A DNA stretch of 64,000 nt from Atribacterota bacterium (GCA_038203565.1 JBBRDV010000001.1:72335-136334), one strand, 5' to 3'; positions 2,557-63,771 are shown, numbered from the stretch's first letter. The notes: generated by a model from the sequence alone, not told the origin. Made by a program: numbers and translations.

Positions 2557-3162
2557 TTATTTTTCCATTTTGATCTTTTCTCCGATTTTTCTTTCTTTCT
2601 TTGATTTTAATTTTTCAATATTATCTTTATGTTTAAAAATACCGAGAATCATAATTATCGCACTGAATATAACATATTCATAAGGTTGTTTAAATAATAT
2701 TGTAAAAATAAAAATAGAAATTACAGCGAAAATAGATGATAAAGAGGCGTATCTTGTTATTATTATAACAATCACCCAGACTATTACTGCTAAAATTGAT
2801 ATCGTTGGATTGAGAGCAAATACAACTCCAAAGGTAGTAGCTATACCTTTACCGCCCTTAAACCCGAGAAATAAAGACCAGTCATGACCACATATTACTG
2901 CTAACCCTGCAATAGTTAATATTAATAAATTATCAATATTAAAATATTGTACTAAATAGATAGAAAAAATACCTTTGCCAATATCGCCAATTACTACAAA
3001 AGAAGCTAATAGAGGTCCCAATATCCTAAGAGCATTGGTTGCACCTATATTTCCGCTTCCGAGTTCTCTTATATCTACTTTCTTAAACAGTTTACCAACA
3101 ATATAGCCAAAAGGTATGGAACCCAAAAGATAACAACTTATAATTATTAAAACAATCTTCAT
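2557..3162 (-). CDS. plsY: glycerol-3-phosphate acyltransferase PlsY
   Basis: 201-aa polytopic membrane protein containing LGSGNIGATN and GGKGIAT motifs. Confidence 0.85.
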   Translation of the reverse strand: MKIVLIIISCYLLGSIPFGYIVGKLFKKVDIRELGSGNIGATNALRILGPLLASFVVIGDIGKGIFSIYLVQYFNIDNLLILTIAGLAVICGHDWSLFLGFKGGKGIATTFGVVFALNPTISILAVIVWVIVIIITRYASLSSIFAVISIFIFTILFKQPYEYVIFSAIIMILGIFKHKDNIEKLKSKKERKIGEKIKMEK

Positions 3163-4505
3163 ACTGTTTCCCTCTCCTCACTTTTTCTCGCTAAATTGAT
3201 AACTACAGGTGAGCCTTCAAAACCAAAAGTTTCATAAAATTTATTTTCTAAATATTTATGATAAGAGGTATACATTAATTTAGGATTGTTTACAAATAAT
3301 AGAAATGTAGGTGGTTTTATCCCTGTTTGAGTAGCGTATTTAATTTTTAGGGTATTTCCCACTACATATTTTGGAGGATTTTTAGAAATAACTTCTCTTA
3401 TAAAAGCATTTATTGCCGAAGTGGGAATTTTTTTACTGTATTGTAAGGCAACTTCTTTAATTTTTGAAATAATTTTATCAATATTATAACCTGTTATGGC
3501 AGAAGTCATTATCACGGGAGAGTTTTTCATAAAAGACAATTCATATCTTATCTCATCAATAAATAATTTTCTATCTATATTATCTTTAATTAAATCAAAT
3601 TTATTCAATATTATAATGCAGGCTTTTCTTTCATCTTGGATGTAATTTGCCATTTTTTTATCTTGCATGCTTACTCCCTGGGTAGCGTCCAATATCAATA
3701 ACACTATATCTGAATTATGCACCGCTTCAAAAGTTCTTAATGTACTGTAATATTCAACATCTTCTTTCGGTTTCGCCTTACCTCTCAAGCCTGCGGTATC
3801 GATAAATATTAATTTTAGTAAATCATGTTTAAAAATTATTTCAATAGCATCTCTGGTGGTGCCGGGATGTTCGCTGACTATAATTCTATCTTCCCCTAAA
3901 ATACGATTTAATAAACTTGATTTTCCTACATTGGGTTTCCCAATAATTGATATTTTTATAATGTCCTCTTCTTCTTCCGGTTCTGTTCCTACTTCTGGAA
4001 TACAGGATACTATTCTATCTAATAAATCATCAACATTAAGTCCGTGTTCTGCCGAAATAATATAGGGATCTCCGAATCCTAATTCGTAAAACTCATATAA
4101 TTTTAATTCACTTCCCTTTACATCTCCCTTGTTGGCTACCAGGATGCTTGTTTTATTTTTTTCTCTAATCGCTTTAGCCACCTTAAAATCATCCGGATTT
4201 ATTCCCTCTTTGACATCGACCAATAATATAATTAAGTCTGCCTCTTCAATAGCCAATTTAGTCTGAACAGTTATTTTTTTTTGCATTTCTTCTTTTTTTA
4301 TAAAATCCACGCCTCCGGTATCTACCAGAACAAATTGCTTTCCTTTCCATTTACATTCTGCATATATCCTATCTCTGGTAATTCCAGGTTCGTTTTCCAC
4401 AATAGCGGTTCTTTTCTTGGTGATTCTATTAAATAGGGTCGATTTCCCTACATTTATCCTTCCGATAATAGCAACAATAGGTTTTCTCAAGGCAAACACT
4501 CCCAT
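3159..4505 (-). CDS. der: ribosome-associated GTPase Der/EngA (tandem GTPase domains)
   Basis: Two G-domains (GRINVGKSTLFN and GKPNVGKSSLLN; DTAGLR) followed by a C-terminal KH-like domain. Overlaps plsY by 4 nt. Confidence 0.9.
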   Translation of the reverse strand: MGVFALRKPIVAIIGRINVGKSTLFNRITKKRTAIVENEPGITRDRIYAECKWKGKQFVLVDTGGVDFIKKEEMQKKITVQTKLAIEEADLIILLVDVKEGINPDDFKVAKAIREKNKTSILVANKGDVKGSELKLYEFYELGFGDPYIISAEHGLNVDDLLDRIVSCIPEVGTEPEEEEDIIKISIIGKPNVGKSSLLNRILGEDRIIVSEHPGTTRDAIEIIFKHDLLKLIFIDTAGLRGKAKPKEDVEYYSTLRTFEAVHNSDIVLLILDATQGVSMQDKKMANYIQDERKACIIILNKFDLIKDNIDRKLFIDEIRYELSFMKNSPVIMTSAITGYNIDKIISKIKEVALQYSKKIPTSAINAFIREVISKNPPKYVVGNTLKIKYATQTGIKPPTFLLFVNNPKLMYTSYHKYLENKFYETFGFEGSPVVINLARKSEERETV

Positions 4506-6773: not shown

Positions 6774-6962
6774 AAAAACACCTACTTTTTTAGTGAATAG
6801 TCATTAGTATTGTGTATTACGTTTGTTTCATCCTAACCCTAATCTTCTAAGGGGAGAGGGAATAAAGATTCTGTATCTTTTAATTCATCCCAATTGTACA
6901 CGCTAAACTCTCTACGCTGTACACTATCTTGCTATATACTCGATACTTACTTAATAATTAAA

Positions 6963-7337
6963 TTAAAAGGCTTGGTTGCTATCAAGATAAAAAGCATTCT
7001 TGATATGTTTTAACCTTTTTACATCTTTATGGTTAGAGATGCTGACCAATATTACATCGAAACAATAATTTTTCTCCCAAAGATTATATTTAGCTAAATA
7101 ACATAAAGCGTTTTTAATTATTTTTCGTTGTTTATTAAAGTTTATTGCTTCTTCAGGATATCCAAACTTATCAGAACGCCTGGTTTTTACTTCCACAAAG
7201 ATAATATTTCCCTTATATTCACTGATAATATCTATTTCTCCCAAGAAGGTACGATAATTTCTCTCTTTAATTTTGTAACCTTTTTCTTCTAAATATTTAG
7301 AAGCTATATCTTCTCCAAATTTCCCTATATTATCCAT
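6963..7337 (-). CDS. yraN: YraN family (UPF0102) predicted endonuclease
   Basis: 124 aa with GE(I/L)D..VFVEVKTRR core. Lies downstream of rnhB, as in Bacillota. Confidence 0.75.
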   Translation of the reverse strand: MDNIGKFGEDIASKYLEEKGYKIKERNYRTFLGEIDIISEYKGNIIFVEVKTRRSDKFGYPEEAINFNKQRKIIKNALCYLAKYNLWEKNYCFDVILVSISNHKDVKRLKHIKNAFYLDSNQAF

Positions 7338-7368
7338 CTGTAATAATCATCTATCTTTGTATTATTTG

Positions 7369-7543
7369 ATTAATCGTTGATTTTAAATACAACTTTTAGT
7401 TGTCAGTCTACAGTCTGGTACAAGGGAATATAATAATACAACCTCTACGCGCTTTGATTTTTCTATAAACTGGCAACTTGAAACCTATAATTATTAATTA
7501 TTAATGTATTTATTTGCTAAAGGCTATTCACTAATGACTAATT
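7369..7543. mobile_element. MITE-like dispersed repeat, copy A (~175 bp) bounded by degenerate inverted 12-mer termini
   Basis: Left end ATTAATCGTTGA; right end CTAATGACTAAT (reverse complement ATTAGTCATTAG). The core is ~80% identical to copy B at 22920-23117. Confidence 0.6.
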
Positions 7544-7559
7544 TCTTATTTTAAGTCAG

Positions 7560-8258
7560 CTACATCATTACTCTTTTATAGCTTTTTCTATGTATTTCTG
7601 ATGGGCCATACTTAAGTAGTGCTTTAAGATGTTCTTTTGTTCCATAACCTTTATTTTTTTTGAAAAGGTACTGTGGATATTTTTGGTCATATTGAATCAT
7701 AATATTATCTCTATAGACTTTAGCAACTATAGAGGCAGCAGCAATCGATATACTTCTGTCTTCACCTTTAATTAATGGTATCTGGAAAATATTTAGGTGA
7801 GGAATTTTAAAGCCGTCCACTAATAAATAATCAGGTAATTCTTTTAAATCTAAAATAGCTTTTTTCATTGCCAAAAAAGAAGCCTGAGCGATATTTATTC
7901 TATCAATAATTTTAGCTTCTACAACACCAATTCCCACGTCTTTTGCTTTACTTAAGATAGAACAATACAATTCTGTTCTTTTTTGTGAACTTAACTTTTT
8001 AGAATCTTTAATATAGGGAATAAACAATCGGCAGGGCAAAATTACTGCGGCAGCCACTACTGGCCCGGACAATGAACCCCTGCCTACCTCATCTATCCCG
8101 GCAATCAAAGAGTACCCTTCAAGTTTTAGTTGATTTTCATAGTTATAGAGATTATAAATTCTTAATCTTTCTGCATATAATCTTTCAATTTTTCTCCGAT
8201 AACTACAAATTATTGTTTTTGTTATTTTTGTTTTCCTATCTTTTACCTCAGGATCCAT
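7560..8258 (-). CDS. rnhB: ribonuclease HII
   Basis: IAGIDEVGRGSLSGPVVAAAVIL and DSKKLS motifs. Confidence 0.9.
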   Translation of the reverse strand: MDPEVKDRKTKITKTIICSYRRKIERLYAERLRIYNLYNYENQLKLEGYSLIAGIDEVGRGSLSGPVVAAAVILPCRLFIPYIKDSKKLSSQKRTELYCSILSKAKDVGIGVVEAKIIDRINIAQASFLAMKKAILDLKELPDYLLVDGFKIPHLNIFQIPLIKGEDRSISIAAASIVAKVYRDNIMIQYDQKYPQYLFKKNKGYGTKEHLKALLKYGPSEIHRKSYKRVMM

Positions 8259-10000: not shown

Positions 10001-10047
10001 TAAAATTTCTCCTTATTCACTAACGACTAATACACTAACGGCTAATT

Positions 10048-10635: not shown

Positions 10636-10664
10636 GTAGGGGCGCGATACATCGTGCCCCTACA
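10636..10664. promoter_or_regulatory. GC-rich hairpin between ffh and rpsP
   Basis: TGTAGGGGC-GCGATACATCGT-GCCCCTACA: a 9-bp stem, unusually GC-rich for this genome, with no trailing U-tract on either strand. Confidence 0.4.
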
Positions 10665-22653: not shown

Positions 22654-22851
22654 TTATTTCGTTTTGTCTTTTTTTTCAGAAGATGAAATAATTTCTTTTC
22701 CATTATAATAACCACATTCAAGACATGCTCTGTGAGGCAATTTCATCTCATGGCATCTAGGACATTCCTCTAAGTTTACTTCATTCAAATTCCAGTGCGT
22801 ACGTCTCTTATCTCTTCTTGATTTGGATGTTTTTCTTTTTGGTACCGGCAT
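22654..22851 (-). CDS. rpmF: 50S ribosomal protein L32
   Basis: MPVPKRKTSKSRRDKRRTH plus a C4 zinc ribbon (CPRC..CLEC). Confidence 0.9.
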   Translation of the reverse strand: MPVPKRKTSKSRRDKRRTHWNLNEVNLEECPRCHEMKLPHRACLECGYYNGKEIISSSEKKDKTK

Positions 22852-22919
22852 AACGCATGCCTCCTTATTATATAATATAATTTAATTTTATCGGGATTTC
22901 CTTTTTTCCGTAAAGCCTA

Positions 22920-23117
22920 ATTAGTCGTTAGCTTCAAATACAAGTTTTTAGTTATCAATTTACAGTTTATTACAATGGAGTATGATAATACAACCTTAAC
23001 ACGCTTTGAGTTTTCTAAAAACTGGCAACTTGTAACTTGAAACTTAAAACCCATAACTTATTAATCATTAATGTGTTTTATTTACTAAATACTATTCACT
23101 ATTCATTAACGACTAAT
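22920..23117. mobile_element. MITE-like dispersed repeat, copy B (~198 bp) with perfect-ish terminal inverted repeats
   Basis: ATTAGTCGTTAG ... TTAACGACTAAT termini. The core (TACAACCT..ACGCTTTGA.TTTTCTA.AAACTGGCAACTTG.AAC) aligns with copy A. Confidence 0.6.
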
Positions 23118-23169
23118 ATAATATCTTAATAACTTTAAAAGTATATAATTTCTTATTGAAAAAAGCAAA

Positions 23170-24525
23170 TTATTTTTGATTTTTTTTATTGTGTCTATTA
23201 GCCTTTATTTTAGATAAATCAGGCTTTTTTTTACATTCTTTTTCGAAGGATTTTTCTCTCATTAAATTTTTATAATTTTCTTTCTGAAAAGTATATTTAA
23301 AGTTAGTATGAATATCATAAGTACCTTCCAGCAGGGCTACCACATCTTCCACAAAGACTAATTCTTCGTCGGTGGGGATAATAAATATCTTTACCGGAGA
23401 ATCATCGGCAGAGATATCAAGTTCAGCATTCCTGGTTCTGGCTATTTTATTCTTTTGGGGGTTATATTTAATTCCTAAATTATCTAAACCTTCTAATACC
23501 TTTTCTCTGATAGTATCACTCAACTCCCCTACTCCGGCGGTAAAGACCAGGGCATCTACTCTTCCTAAAGCGGCAGTATAGGCACCAATATATTTCTTCA
23601 GTCGGTAGGATTCCATTTCGATGGCCAACTGAGATCTTTTGTCCCCTTGGGAGGCTGCTTTTATCACATCTCTTCTATCTATATACTTACCGGTTATACC
23701 CAATATTCCACTCTTCTTATTGAGTATAGTATCCATCTCTTGGGGAGAATAACCTTCCTGCTGCATAACATAGAAGTCCAGAGCGGCATCATGGTCTCCG
23801 GCTCTGGTACCCATAATGGCTCCCTCTAAAGGGGTAAATCCCATACTAGTATCATAAGAAAGACCATTTTTCACTGCATTTACACTTACTCCATTTCCGA
23901 TATGGCAGCTGATTAAGTTACAGCTAAAGGGGTCTTTACCCAGGAGAACAGCTGCTCTTTTAGCAACATATAATAATGAAGTGCCGTGAAAACCATATCT
24001 TCTTATCCCGTATTTTTCATACCACTGGTAGGGTACGGCGTAATTATAGACATAGTCAGGCATAGTCTGATGCCAGGCTGTATCCATAATAGCCATATGG
24101 GGAATATCAGGTAATAGTTCCATGGCTGCCTCAATTCCCATGATATTAGGGGGATTGTGCAGGGGAGCGAGTACGGCAAGTTCTTTAAATGTTTTTAGGA
24201 CTTCCCGGTTGATGATTACCGATTTGTAAAATTTTTCACCCCCATGAACTACCCTATGGCCGATAGCGGAAATATCTGATAAATCCTTTATGGCACCGTA
24301 TTCTGGATGAACAAGGCTATCTATAATTAATTTTATAGCTTCTTTATGGGTAGGACAATTATGCTCTATGGTAACTTTTTCTTTATGATTAACCTCATGG
24401 ACACAGAAAGAATCTCCTATGATGACTCGCTCTACTATACCTTTGGCAATTATTTCCTGTTTTTCCCAATTATAGAGTTGATATTTTACAGAGGAACTGC
24501 CACAGTTAAAAGATAAGATGATCAT
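23170..24525 (-). CDS. ackA: acetate kinase with ~45-aa lysine-rich C-terminal extension
   Basis: Acetate/propionate kinase hallmarks (LSFNCGSSSVKYQL, GHRVVHGG, IPTDEEL). At 451 aa versus the usual ~400 aa, the extra tail is KENYKNLMREKSFEKECKKKPDLSKIKANRHNKKNQK. Confidence 0.9.
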   Translation of the reverse strand: MIILSFNCGSSSVKYQLYNWEKQEIIAKGIVERVIIGDSFCVHEVNHKEKVTIEHNCPTHKEAIKLIIDSLVHPEYGAIKDLSDISAIGHRVVHGGEKFYKSVIINREVLKTFKELAVLAPLHNPPNIMGIEAAMELLPDIPHMAIMDTAWHQTMPDYVYNYAVPYQWYEKYGIRRYGFHGTSLLYVAKRAAVLLGKDPFSCNLISCHIGNGVSVNAVKNGLSYDTSMGFTPLEGAIMGTRAGDHDAALDFYVMQQEGYSPQEMDTILNKKSGILGITGKYIDRRDVIKAASQGDKRSQLAIEMESYRLKKYIGAYTAALGRVDALVFTAGVGELSDTIREKVLEGLDNLGIKYNPQKNKIARTRNAELDISADDSPVKIFIIPTDEELVFVEDVVALLEGTYDIHTNFKYTFQKENYKNLMREKSFEKECKKKPDLSKIKANRHNKKNQK

Positions 24526-24666
24526 AGTTTTTTCCTCCCAATCTTTTGCCTATATTTAAACTTGACAATTTATTTCTAATTATTTTTAGCAGGTTCGACG
24601 TATCGTACGCCCACCTCTTAGCCTTAATCTTCTCCACGCAATACTCGATACTCGATGCTAATTACT

Positions 24667-24682
24667 ATTCACTAACGACTAA
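24667..24682. repeat. representative copy of the 17-mer boundary motif TTCACTAACGACTAAT
   Basis: The same or a one- to three-mismatch motif, in either orientation, is at 2530, 6787, 7527, 10017, 10030, 22920, 23106, 31372, 31425, 34600, 39546, 39603, 60811 and 63638, always intergenic or touching a stop codon. Confidence 0.7.
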
Positions 24683-24691
24683 TCTATATAT

Positions 24692-31371: not shown

Positions 31372-31438
31372 AATTAGTCGTTAGCCTGTCTGCGCCTGCC
31401 TGTGCAGGTTCGCACAGGTAGATGAATAGTCATTAGTG
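31372..31438. repeat. ~67-bp hairpin-containing intergenic element, copy 1
   Basis: ATTAGTCGTTAG-CCTGTCTGCGCCTGCCTGTGCAGGTTCGCACAGGTAGATG-AATAGTCATTAGTG. Internal 7-bp stem CCTGTGC/GCACAGG. Copy 2 lies at 39546-39614 in inverted orientation. Confidence 0.7.
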
Positions 31439-37941: not shown

Positions 37942-37989
37942 AAAAACCTTCTTTTTTATTTTTTTATTAAAATTATAGCATAAATAAAC

Positions 37990-38160
37990 AAATGATAGAA
38001 CATAGTATTTCGTATTTCGTATTTCGTTAAGAAAGACTAGCGCAGAGTGTGTAGCGTTTAGTGTAGAGTTAAGAAAGAAGAATACAAAAGTCTAATTCGT
38101 ATTTGGTGAATCGTATCTCGGATGTAACGATATACCATATACGATATACGATATACGATT
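37990..38160. repeat. cluster of 7-bp-periodic tandem repeats and ACGCT-module
   Basis: (GTATTTC)x3 at 38004-38026; CTAGCGCAGAGTGTGTAGCGTTTAGTGTAGAG, the reverse complement of the CTCTACGCTAAACGCT..CACT module; CGTATCTCG; and (ATACGAT)x3 ending at the pdp stop. Confidence 0.7.
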
Positions 38161-39545: not shown

Positions 39546-39614
39546 CTAACGACTATTCATCTACCTGTGCGAACCTGCACAGTCAGGCGCAGACAGGATA
39601 TTTACTAATGACTA
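39546..39614. repeat. ~67-bp hairpin-containing intergenic element, copy 2 (inverted, overlaps hppA stop codon)
   Basis: Reverse complement is nearly identical to 31372-31438, differing at one position. Confidence 0.7.
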
Positions 39615-41576
39615 TTTTATAAATAGAGGAACAAACACCAGAGCGACTATAGACATTACTTTAATTAATATATTCATAGAAGGGCCGGCAGTATCTTTAA
39701 GAGGATCACCTACAGTATCACCTATAACTGCGGCCTCATGGACTTTTGTACCTTTTCCCCCATAATTTCCCATTTCAATATATTTTTTGGCATTATCCCA
39801 AGCTCCTCCGGAATTGGCCATCTGTATAGCCAACAATACTCCTACTAACACTGCTCCAATCAACATTCCTCCCAATGCTTCTGGTCCAAGTACTATTCCT
39901 ACTACTATAGGGGCAATTATGGCTAACAACCCGGGCAATACCATCTCTTTTAAAGCTCCTTTAGTGCTAATATCTACACATCTCGCAGAATCCGGCTTAG
40001 CTTTTCCCTCTTTCAAACCAGGAATTTCTCTAAATTGCCTTCGAACTTCTTCTATCATTAAGAAAGCTGTTTTCCCTACTGCATTTATGGCTAAAGCAGA
40101 AAAAAGATAAGGCAAAAGACCACCTATAAACATCCCGGCTACCACTATCGGATTGGTTATGCTTATAGTTTCTAAACCTACAGATTTACAATAAGCTGAA
40201 AATAAAGCCAAAGCAGTTAATGCTGCTGAGCCGATAGCAAAACCCTTTCCAATAGCAGCTGTGGTATTTCCTACAGCATCTAATGAATCGGTAATTTTTC
40301 GAACCTTGGGATCCAGCCCGGCCATTTCGGCAATTCCACCCGAATTATCAGCAATCGGACCATAGGAATCAACGGAAACCGTCATGCCGACTATAGAAAG
40401 CATTCCTACCGCTGAAACAGCAATACCGTATAAACCCGCGAATTTATAGGCAACTAATACCGTAAAGGCAATCACGAGTAGTGGTATAGCAGTACTTTGC
40501 ATACCGACAGCCAATCCCGAAATAATGGTAGTTGCTGCTCCGGTAAGTGATGATTTAGAAATTGATTTTACCGGAGGATAATGGTAAGAGGTATAATATT
40601 CAGTTACTAATCCGATAATTATACCGGCAATCAATCCAGCGGTAGTGGCATAAAATACATTTAAACTATTAAATAAAACATTAGAAAGAAAAGCAGAAGC
40701 AATAATAACTAAAAATCCGCTTGCCAAAGTTCCTTTGGTTAAAGCAAGATTTAGATTCTTTTCACTTTTAGTATTTACAAAAAAGGTGCCTATAATAGAA
40801 GAAATTGCCCCACAAGCAGCTAACAATAGAGGGAACATAACTCCTTTAGCCCCTTCAAATAATAATCCACCTAAGATCATGCTGGAAATAATTGCACCTA
40901 CATAAGATTCAAATAGGTCTGCACCCATTCCGGCTATATCCCCTACATTATCCCCTACATTATCAGCGATAACTGCCGGGTTACGAGGGTCATCTTCGGG
41001 TATCCCTACTTCCACCTTTCCCACTAAATCAGCTCCCACATCTGCTGCCTTAGTAAATATTCCACCACCTACTCTGGCAAATAAGGCTATAGAGCTCGCG
41101 CCTAAAGCAAATCCATTTATAATTTCCGGGTCTCTGATGAAGTAATATAAAATACCTAAACCTAATAATCCAAAACCTGCTACCGACATACCCATTACTG
41201 CACCACCGGAAAAAGCAATTTTTAATGCTTTGCTTATTCCGCCATCCATGGCAGCATGAGCAGTCCTCGAATTTGCTTTAGTGGCAATTTTCATTCCGGT
41301 TAAACCTGCTAATCCAGAACAAATTGCCCCCACCACAAAAGATAAGCTGGTAATAGGGTTTCTCACCCAGCCCAGTACAAGACTAACTACAATGATAAAA
41401 AATACTAAAACGCTATATTCTCTTTTTAAAAAAGCCATAGCTCCCTGTTCAATCATCTTTGATATTTCTTGCATTAATTCATTTCCCGGTTTTTCTCTAA
41501 TTACCTTCAGAGAAAGAAATACGGCAAATATAAGGCTAATTATGCCACTAAGAGGGATTAACAGTTCAATTTGCAT
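39612..41576 (-). CDS. hppA: membrane-bound ion-translocating pyrophosphatase
   Basis: 654-aa polytopic protein with the V-PPase signature GDNVGD..DLFESY.. and GDTVGDP.. Confidence 0.9.
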
Positions 41577-48241: not shown

Positions 48242-48277
48242 ATTAACATCTCTTTCTCTCTTAATTACTAATGAAAT

Positions 48278-48326
48278 TCCCTCTCATAGAGATTTTCTGA
48301 AAACTATTATCTGTTAGAGAGAGGGA
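48278..48326 (-). promoter_or_regulatory. hairpin in glyQ leader
   Basis: 8-bp stem TCCCTCTC / GAGAGGGA with a ~33-nt interior. No T-box consensus is present. Confidence 0.4.
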
Positions 48327-48342
48327 CAATATTTTATTTGTT

Positions 48343-48371
48343 AATATATCAAAATCAGCCTTAATTGTCAA
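48343..48371 (-). promoter_or_regulatory. putative sigmaA promoter of glyQ-glyS-PDRP-ppdK
   Basis: Minus strand TTGACA (48366-48371), a 17-nt spacer, then TATATT (48343-48348). Gives a ~95-nt leader to the glyQ ATG. Confidence 0.5.
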
Positions 48372-48374
48372 CGT

Positions 48375-48672
48375 AACTAAATATAGTATCGAGTATCAAG
48401 TATCCAGTATCGAGCGAAGGAAATCGGTTGTCAGTTATCGGTTATAATTTTTAAATAAAGAAATAAAAAGAATTGGATTCTGTATTCTGACTTCTTTTTA
48501 TTAACTAACCAGCAAGGGATGCAATGTGTAACATTTGGTAAGTAACGTGTAATAAGTAACCCGTTGTTGTAAATCCAGAACTATAGTTTTATTACATATT
48601 ACTTAATACTGTGTTCTTTTCACTCTACGCTAAACGCTCCACACTAGTTTGCACGAGATACGAGATACGAAT
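48375..48672. repeat. two repeat clusters in the recO-glyQ spacer
   Basis: 48380-48415 TATCGAGTATCAAGTATCCAGTATCGAG (TCGAGTA-type heptads) and 48612-48672 CTCTACGCTAAACGCTCCACACTAGTTTGCACGAGATACGAGATACGA. Confidence 0.65.
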
Positions 48673-48680
48673 TTAGCCAG

Positions 48681-63617: not shown

Positions 63618-63771
63618 ATAATTTACACTCCTAAGTTAGTCGTTAGTTTGAAATACAATATACAAGATAAACTAGTTAAATAGTTTAATTCTAATAATTT
63701 ATTAACCAATTAACTAAGTAATTAAGCAACAAATCGAGATATATATTAAAATTATAAAATTATAAAAACAA

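Follow-up and report, generated by a model that had tools for sequence, protein, structure and literature searches.

The BOX elements of Streptococcus pneumoniae have a boxA-boxB(n)-boxC architecture, the BIME/REP sequences of enterobacteria are mosaic intergenic repeats, and the STRR repeats of cyanobacteria are intergenic heptanucleotide tandem repeats. REP sequences are GC-rich imperfect palindromes of 20–40 nt with a GTAG head and go together with a RAYT transposase. fimS of E. coli and the invertons of Bacteroides are invertible promoter segments, of which a population contains both orientations, and which have an invertase of their own. The Correia repeat-enclosed elements (CREE/NEMIS) of Neisseria are marked by the Correia consensus, a TA duplication and an IHF site. 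Miniature inverted-repeat transposable elements, or MITEs, have been defined (PMC10969869) as non-coding, AT-rich, intergenic sequences of less than 500 bp, and the prokaryotic examples treated there (QMITE2 of Coxiella and Chunjie of Geobacter) have inverted ends, stable predicted transcript folds, and truncated or size-variable copies. The CREE/NEMIS elements can create promoters, and their transcripts form hairpins that are bound or cleaved by RNase III (PMC2649163; PMC10969869). The TAACTGA repeats of Beggiatoaceae, Cyanobacteria and Bacteroidetes are intergenic, often lie by start codons and are of unknown function, with slippage proposed (PMC4679880, through whose summary the long simple sequence repeats described by Mrazek et al. 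2007 are also cited). Here, we describe an intergenic repeat from a 64,000-nucleotide stretch of Atribacterota DNA (JBBRDV010000001.1, 72335–136334; the whole stretch is referred to as the window) and compare it with these systems.

Two regions of the window, denoted copy A and copy B, are copies of a lineage-specific, non-coding intergenic cassette of Atribacterota, which we call family 1. Family 1 is an intergenic mosaic with the behaviour of a MITE or of the Correia element of Neisseria, and is probably moved by recombination at arrays of heptamers. Its copies share a common anatomy, are dispersed over many spacers, have been retained across species, and have been replaced, inverted, truncated and resized with breakpoints at the arrays. 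The two copies and the genes around them are located as follows:

7369–7543, plus strand: copy A, family-1 cassette of the rnhB-yraN spacer, more diverged than any other copy and decayed in its outer arms
6963–7337 and 7560–8258, minus strand: yraN and rnhB, the genes around copy A
22920–23117, plus strand: copy B, family-1 cassette in the ackA-rpmF spacer
22654–22851 and 23170–24525, minus strand: rpmF and ackA, the genes around copy B

All genes near either copy are on the minus strand, and the G+C content of the window is 32.7%. The original prediction, made from the sequence of the window, had reported these two look-alike regions, aligning over about 150 bp at roughly 80% identity. Both regions are present, and the length is confirmed (146 nt, E = 3e-27), with the identity nearer to 75% (75.3%); the mean column identity between the two spacers is 76%, and a repeat finder returned 120 nt at 76%. 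A search with nhmmer recovered copy A as 7368–7561 (E = 1e-45) and copy B as 22909–23121 (E = 3e-55). The match between the copies is thus far above chance, and every shared block that had been quoted was found in the alignment of both. The distance of 60–90 bp to the next start codon that had been given for both copies holds for copy B (69 nt to rpmF) but not for copy A (32 nt to yraN).

The anatomy of the cassette was derived from an alignment of 22 copies and is described in the plus-strand orientation of the window. Related contigs are identified by L numbers. The 5' part consists of a (TAGTCGT/TAGTGAA)n array, followed by TTTTAAATACA, GTTTTCAGTTATCGG and TTTACA-N16-TATGAT, and the 3' part runs from AATACAAyCTCTACGCACTTTGAG through TTTTCTATAAACTGGCAACTTGTAACTTGAAAC and a stretch of decaying heptamers to an (ACTATTC/ACTAACG)n array. 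A second module, CTAATTAGGGCTTACGGAAAAAGGAAATTTCTATACAAT (P2), comes after the unit at most loci. The full-length unit is a nested palindrome, with outer arms of oppositely oriented heptamer arrays and inner arms in which GTTTTCA GTTATCG GTTTACA is matched with the reverse complement of TGGCAAC TTGTAAC TTGAAAC. In the full-length relatives measured for long arms (L005, L025 and L026), the outer arms are 26–45 nt long (78–88% complementary) and the inner arms 27–29 nt, with 46 nt between the inner arms. A sigma-70-type −10 hexamer lies in this unique centre of ≈46 nt and the −35 hexamer in the left inner arm; the hexamers of this promoter-like site (P1) are kept, or swapped for other promoter-like hexamers, at the homologous position in ≈20 relatives. 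Nested-hairpin folds were found for L026 (−74.6 kcal/mol, z = −8.35) and L005 (−64.5 kcal/mol, z = −6.25). The parts of the window copies are:

7369–7380, plus strand: left arm of copy A, degenerate, ATTAATCGTTGA, a 9/12 match to ATTAGTCGTTAG
7407–7434, plus strand: P1 promoter-like site of copy A, TCTACA-N16-TATAAT, 10/12 matches
7459–7480, plus strand: conserved 22-mer of copy A, TTTTCTATAAACTGGCAACTTG, right inner arm
7524–7542, minus strand: right arm of copy A, heptamer array, minus strand reads ATTAGTCATTAGTGAATAG
22885–22914, minus strand: P2 module, TTTACG-N18-TAAAAT, facing rpmF
22920–22931, plus strand: left outer arm of copy B, ATTAGTCGTTAG
22939–22953, plus strand: left inner arm of copy B, pairs with 23020–23034 (15 nt, 80% complementary)
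22959–22986, plus strand: P1 promoter-like site of copy B, TTTACA-N16-TATGAT, 10/12 matches
23011–23032, plus strand: conserved 22-mer of copy B, TTTTCTAAAAACTGGCAACTTG
23019–23050, plus strand: run of 4.6 AACTTGN heptamers that includes TTGTAAC/TTGAAAC, detected with Tandem Repeats Finder (TRF)
23091–23117, minus strand: right outer arm of copy B, heptamer array, minus strand reads ATTAGTCGTTAATGAATAGTGAATAGT

The termini are much as they had been described. Copy B is edged by ATTAGTCGTTAG (22920–22931) and its inverse TTAACGACTAAT (23106–23117, 11/12), which form a perfect inverted repeat of 11 nt, and the ends of copy A, ATTAATCGTTGA (7369–7380) and CTAATGACTAAT (7531–7542), are degenerate, with no perfect outer inverted repeat of at least 9 nt. 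The TTGAAAC/TTGTAAC hexamers that had been proposed as −35 elements have no partner −10 and are units of the AACTTGN heptamer run; the promoter-like site that is kept in both copies sits upstream of them, at 7407–7434 and 22959–22986. Likenesses to sigma-54 sites, DnaA boxes, CodY boxes and attC cores were judged by eye and were poor matches. P2 lies directly 3' of the cassette and in the same direction in most relatives and is in the opposite direction at copy B. As a general rule, P2 cannot be taken for the promoter of the downstream gene, since in the contexts of tpiA and rpsI it is directed at a convergent gene, towards the 3' end.

The boundary 12-mer had been taken for the terminus of the element itself. 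It is two units of the TAGTCGT/TAGTGAA tandem array, and it is over-represented 13-fold in the window (12 matches with at most one mismatch, versus 0.91 expected), with 9 of the 12 matches on the gene strand. A longer 19-mer, ATTAGTCRTTAGTGAATAG, occurs five times versus 0.02 expected. Some of the array sites are in spacers without the element (for example, pta-ackA and the spacer upstream of rimM), and some arrays are found just 3' of stop codons or just 5' of ribosome-binding sites:

10013–10046, minus strand: tandem pair of 12-mer units immediately upstream of the ribosome-binding site of rimM
24665–24683, minus strand: heptamer array without cassette, ATTAGTCGTTAGTGAATAG, in the pta-ackA spacer
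31373–31436, plus strand: GC-rich hairpin insert of 40 nt (31385–31424) with direct 12-mer copies on either side
39546–39616, minus strand: second copy of the GC-rich hairpin insert (39558–39597), between direct 12-mers

In relatives, up to seven array units are present (L026). Identity at a spacing of 7 nt is 0.447 and 0.45 in the two cassette spacers, against ≈0.30 at other spacings; for the remaining spacers pooled it is 0.338 versus ≈0.30, and for coding DNA 0.28. TRF detected many further heptamer arrays in the window, and the spacers display several heptamer families. The arrays characterize spacers across the whole genome in this lineage and are not private termini of the cassette.

Several other spacer sequences of the window are built in a similar manner. 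The strongest 7-nt periodicity is found at 37942–38158 (0.54), 2487–2556 (0.49) and 48242–48680 (0.40), and the heptamers in these spacers are CGTATAT, GAAATAC, GATACTC and TAGCGTA/GAGCGTA. Both copies of the 40-nt GC-rich hairpin, CCTGTCTGCGCCTGNCTGTGCAGGTTCGCACAGGTAGATG, lie between direct (A)ATAGTCRTTAG 12-mers, as if inserted into an array, and are REP-like. A REP-like palindrome, GTAGGGGCACGATGTATCGCGCCCCTAC, with a GTAG head and a CTAC tail, is found at 10636–10663 (minus strand), 18 nt from a variant of the 12-mer. The array motif TAGTCGTTAGTGAATAGT is present on 10 IMG/VR contigs (L038–L047), some of which share a sample series with host contigs; they may derive from phages or prophages that infect these Atribacterota, or may be host DNA that was wrongly classified. 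A phage origin of the element itself was considered and rejected, as the core is absent from IMG/VR.

Closely related strains carry different sequences in the cassette spacers. Nine contigs encode exactly the YraN protein of the window, with flanks ≈97% identical and 4-fold degenerate sites 96–99% identical. Copy A is present in two of the nine, and the other seven have an unrelated, heptamer-rich sequence of ≈170 nt in the rnhB-yraN spacer. One breakpoint of the replacement comes immediately after ATTAGTCATTAGTGAATA and the opposite one is close to the degenerate arm, and the right arm of copy A (7524–7542) is kept in strains with the replaced cassette. The replacement is the derived state, because a more distant species (L010, 88–92% identical) retains copy A. 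The replacing sequence belongs with a second type of cassette that is also found in the window:

63635–63768, plus strand: family 2 cassette, starting with GTTAGTCGTTAG-TTTGAAATACAA; homologue of the sequence replacing copy A

The replacing sequence matches 63661–63768 with 71% identity over 108 nt (E = 6e-16), and has further homologues in the ackA-rpmF spacers of L056 (78% over 142 nt, E = 2e-27), L054, L049 and L048.

The ackA-rpmF spacer was compared among contigs that were found via RpmF homologues; its left and right blocks are constant, and the middle varies. Family 1 occupies this middle in the window, L053, L026 and L007, and family 2, in some cases together with GC-rich hairpin inserts, occupies it in L048, L049, L051 and L054–L056. 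A short family-2 fragment is left in L052 (143-nt spacer), and almost nothing in L062 (118-nt spacer). L053 and L049 have different cassettes between flanks that are 98–99% identical, and the number of array units differs among the orthologous copies of the window, L007, L053 and L026. Cassettes have been altered in other ways as well. In L002, a core of ≈200 bp is reversed (83% identity) between collinear flanks (80–85% identity). The copy in L004 lies between two tRNA-Met genes and lacks its promoter half, the 3' half of the unit in L011 is swapped for other heptamers, and the copy in L012 is interrupted beside a UPF0236/ISLre2-type transposase fragment.

Some further observations concern these same regions. 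Many Firmicutes-like gene orders have a DUF177/YceD-type gene between ackA and rpmF; in the window (22852–23169) this spacer is without one, the cassette is its sole content, and the spacer is down to 118 nt in relatives (L062). The truncated UPF0236 (ISLre2-type) open reading frame (ORF) of L012 is located ≈810–1470 nt downstream of the core (in the orientation of the core), the right arm of family 1 is missing there, and the junction motif, GTTAGTGTAAACTTTARTRGGGTAGTTA, recurs in L049. The yraN-comM spacer is 189 nt long in the window (6774–6962) versus 391 nt in the conspecific L029 (3446–3729), with no homology across the gap, and is a second hypervariable spacer beside the first. Among L062–L069, which encode an identical RpmF protein (P0012), the rpmF-fapR spacer (at about 2711–3500 of the locus) is between 426 and 782 nt long, an extreme length variation inside one species-level group. 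In L049 (2698–3342) and L050 (253–897), the rpmF-fapR spacer has a strong, bidirectional-looking terminator hairpin, GTGCCACA...TGTGGCAC, with a T run, and a P2-type module ≈110 nt downstream that is aimed back at the hairpin, an arrangement that would yield a short convergent transcript.

Homologues of the cassette were sought with an exact 22-nt core pattern, TTTTCTANAAACTGGCAACTTG. The pattern matched four genomes of a species-representative collection, all of them metagenome-assembled genomes of Atribacterota, including Ca. Sediminicultor tertius. It was also present in 22 metagenome contigs, 21 of which were homologous; the remaining one (L024) was a chance match. Logan contigs of SRR19962010 were identical to stretches of the window. 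The further copies that the original prediction had anticipated are thus found in relatives, and flanking ORFs and Pfam domains place them in at least eight spacer contexts:

yraN-rnhB spacer: the window, L010, L017, L030 and L034
rpmF-ackA spacer: the window, L007, L026 and L053; also L002
tpiA-secG spacer: L005, L016 and L019
spacer from rpsI to an alanine-racemase-like gene: L009, L011, L013, L022 and L025
leuB-trpE spacer: L003, L012, L021 and L027
tRNA operon: L004
upstream of korA: L023
spacer between a carbamoyltransferase-like and an amidohydrolase-like gene: L006

The orientation of the unit relative to the flanking genes is mixed, and in five contexts it points against them. The sequence might have been simply conserved promoter DNA of orthologous spacers, which would have spoken against a mobile element; since it is found in at least eight unrelated spacers, it is not merely the promoter of one orthologous gene. 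Within one context, copies are 89–97% identical, except for the diverged copy A and the half-replaced L011, and between contexts the identity is mostly 70–90%. The duplications are therefore older than the splits between species. The identity of copy B to the L002 copy is 83%, compared to 46% for the 4-fold sites of ackA. The element is more conserved than neutral sites in this comparison, which points to constraint or concerted evolution. An nhmmer search for more diverged copies yielded partial matches only, with arrays and P2 but without the centre. A T-box leader between the element and trpE in L003 and L021 was a guess by eye that Rfam did not confirm. The sole Rfam family in six related loci scanned was a lysine riboswitch (RF00168, 128.6 bits) at 6775–6963 of L002.

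These observations would be explained if the heptamer arrays act as short, portable homology between spacers. Ectopic recombination or gene conversion between arrays, together with slippage, could copy, replace, invert, truncate and resize the cassettes, and would leave the same few spacers holding different cassettes in different strains. No dedicated transposase would be needed for such movement. The incoming cassette may also bring an outward-firing promoter, and, when read through, may give rise to a long RNA hairpin as a possible RNase III or stability determinant; either could change the expression of the flanking housekeeping genes. We give this recombination route, the outward promoter and the effect of the RNA hairpin an even chance of being correct. 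Several points weigh against it. The inversion in L002 is a single comparison in which the downstream gene differs and one flank belongs to a repeated module. In the window copies, the arms are trimmed or degenerate, and the folds are no better than those of shuffled sequences (z = −0.4 to −2.2). Promoter-like hexamers are common in AT-rich DNA, with one and four in the two regions versus 2.0 and 2.7 expected, and both the promoter activity and the RNA processing of the cassette are predicted from sequence. The invariance of the 22-mer was built into the search, and the conservation may partly reflect shared ancestry or concerted evolution, since all carriers are rather closely related. There may be a dedicated transposase or recombinase, as carriers were seen only in incomplete genomes. 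Such an enzyme is part of a bolder proposal, which we advance tentatively and consider somewhat unlikely: that this Atribacterota lineage has an undescribed intergenic cassette-exchange system in which housekeeping spacers (rpmF, yraN, secG, rpsI and others) are array-bounded docking sites, and cassettes of ≈200 bp (family 1 with its promoter, family 2 and the GC-hairpin inserts) are actively swapped, inverted and resized by a dedicated array-recognizing recombinase, rewiring promoters and the structure of 5' and 3' untranslated regions (UTRs) throughout the population.

The original prediction was that of a MITE-like element, and part of it stands. At 175–200 bp in the window and 180–270 bp in relatives, the cassettes are AT-rich, intergenic and non-coding, and fall below the 500-bp limit of the MITE definition. 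A conserved ORF was sought in every frame and was not found: stop-free stretches spanning the core go down to 4–15 amino acids and have no common start. The copies are dispersed (two in 64 kb, at least eight contexts, with presence versus replacement at two loci), cassette presence varies by strain, the inverted arms reach 45 nt in relatives, and full-length copies have stable hairpin folds. Furthermore, family 1, family 2 and the GC-rich hairpin insert share the terminal 12-mer, in the way that MITE families may share one transposase. However, several observations speak against a classical MITE, in which the inverted arrays would be true terminal inverted repeats (in MITEs ≈4–30 bp long and defining the ends of the element), with cut-and-paste movement by a transposase encoded elsewhere. 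The arms here vary in unit number and are also found alone, and 12 of the 24 copies lack a perfect outer inverted repeat of at least 9 nt. Target-site duplications, which had been suggested as a check, were 0–4 nt long and inconsistent even between orthologues (4 nt in L007, 1 nt in copy B and 0 in L026). Old MITEs can lose these duplications (PMC10969869), and their lack here therefore weakens MITE membership without excluding it. There was no clean empty site among the strains compared; the alternative alleles hold another cassette and are replacements. Copies are found at orthologous sites across species with 4-fold sites 46–75% identical, so that recent transposition is not evident. No autonomous transposase with matching ends was seen among the contigs and incomplete genomes covered, and the only transposase fragment, the UPF0236/ISLre2-type one that interrupts the copy in L012, is unrelated to the ends of the element. 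Taken as a classical MITE, the cassette is therefore an unlikely case. We give less credence still to the idea that the array is the functional unit, a multi-site target of an abundant nucleic-acid-binding protein, and that the cassette merely arose as arrays expanded and decayed. The gene strand would read UAG-N4-UAG-N4-UAG, and HutP-type recognition is of UAG triplets 4 nt apart. The arrays are over-represented, mostly on the gene strand (9/12), several are located right after stop codons or before ribosome-binding sites, the whole element is 7-nt periodic, and similar proposals exist for the TAACTGA repeats (PMC4679880). This leaves unexplained the conserved, non-periodic centre of 46 nt and its retention at 80–97% identity in unrelated spacers; no candidate binding protein was identified, and other spacers are built of quite different heptamers.

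A structured small RNA gene family had been offered as an alternative to a MITE. P1 could drive an RNA of ≈100–130 nt from near ACAACC, acting as a small or antisense RNA via an unstructured, conserved 5' region. In favour of such an RNA, the −35 and −10 hexamers are conserved and followed by ≈60 conserved nt, the unit points against the flanking genes in five contexts, and the part from ACAACC to the right arm is found without promoter in L004 between two tRNA genes and on their strand, compatible with release by tRNA processing. However, Rfam gave no matches at its gathering thresholds in the window and none at the element in the six loci, and the matches at E ≤ 10 on both copies were at chance level only. 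RNAalifold, run on 18–20 homologues, on both strands and for the inner-arm region, returned consensus folds of −1.4, 0 and −4.0 kcal/mol, with no covariation and no compensatory pair among 20 sequences. No terminator follows P1 or adjoins copy A or copy B. In addition, the 3' half of the unit is replaced by other heptamers in L011, and the whole unit is replaced in conspecific strains, so that copy A is dispensable. A structured RNA is thus not supported, an unstructured RNA of this kind is improbable, and an inverton, in which a site-specific recombinase would flip the segment between the inverted 12-mers and switch rpmF or antisense transcription on and off, is less probable still. A promoter-like site does lie between inverted repeats, and the orientation in L002 is opposite to that in the window, relative to the shared flanks. 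Against an inverton, only one orientation per locus was found among contigs of the same or sister populations (rnhB-yraN in the window, L030 and L034; ackA-rpmF in the window, L007, L026 and L053), the only inversion is between species with 4-fold sites 46% identical, the flanked genes are housekeeping genes, and no invertase gene was seen near either copy.

The main interest lies in a lineage-wide system of hypervariable spacers, more than in the two window copies themselves. Strains with 97–99% identical genes differ completely in these spacers. If movement by array recombination is correct, exchangeable cassettes diversify the non-coding DNA of housekeeping spacers in a subsurface phylum that is abundant and uncultured. 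The cassettes could then be hidden regulatory variation; they would break metagenome assemblies, and might be of use for telling strains apart. Heptanucleotide tandem repeats, unexplained since they were first described from cyanobacteria and Beggiatoaceae, would gain a testable role as recombination or boundary sequences. Even if family 1 were merely a decaying selfish repeat, it would still be the first such family in Atribacterota, as far as the literature search shows.

Compared to the CREE, the element is likewise intergenic and ≈100–200 bp in size, with inverted-repeat ends, a conserved core and strain-variable presence, and it agrees with them in its layout, its promoter-like site and its predicted long hairpin. 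The CREE is a functional analogue only, likened by description, and the element is not a member by sequence. It differs in that no TA or other consistent 2-nt duplication was found, in its arms, which are variable tandem heptamer arrays that are also found alone, and in its host phylum. The prokaryotic MITEs share with it a size below 500 bp, an AT-rich, intergenic and non-coding sequence, inverted ends, stable predicted folds, and truncated and size-variable copies. In contrast to MITEs, the contigs examined showed neither consistent flanking direct repeats nor a partner transposase, the sites are conserved between orthologues, and the alternative alleles are another cassette. With the invertons, the element has in common the inverted repeats around a promoter-like site and the occurrence of both orientations among relatives, but the comparison of contigs showed no orientation polymorphism within a population and no adjacent recombinase.

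The BOX and BIME sequences are also modular, with complementary end modules, variable internal tandem units, and reusable modules whose combination differs between loci. There is no sequence relation to either; the family-1 core has no REP-type GTAG palindrome, and the GTAG hairpin at 10636–10663 is separate from it. The arms are closest to the TAACTGA-type repeats, as they consist of head-to-tail heptamers concentrated in spacers, and TCAGTTA, the reverse complement of TAACTGA, is present in the left inner arm of most copies. The heptamers themselves differ (TAGTCGT/TAGTGAA and several others), and inverted pairs of arrays that enclose conserved centres and mark breakpoints have not been described for the TAACTGA repeats; no heptamer repeats of Atribacterota are reported in the searchable literature. 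Three features are novel in combination and set family 1 apart from all of these systems: its variable termini are inverted heptamer arrays, its nested palindrome encloses a promoter-like centre, and at a given housekeeping spacer conspecific strains have one or the other of two cassette families.

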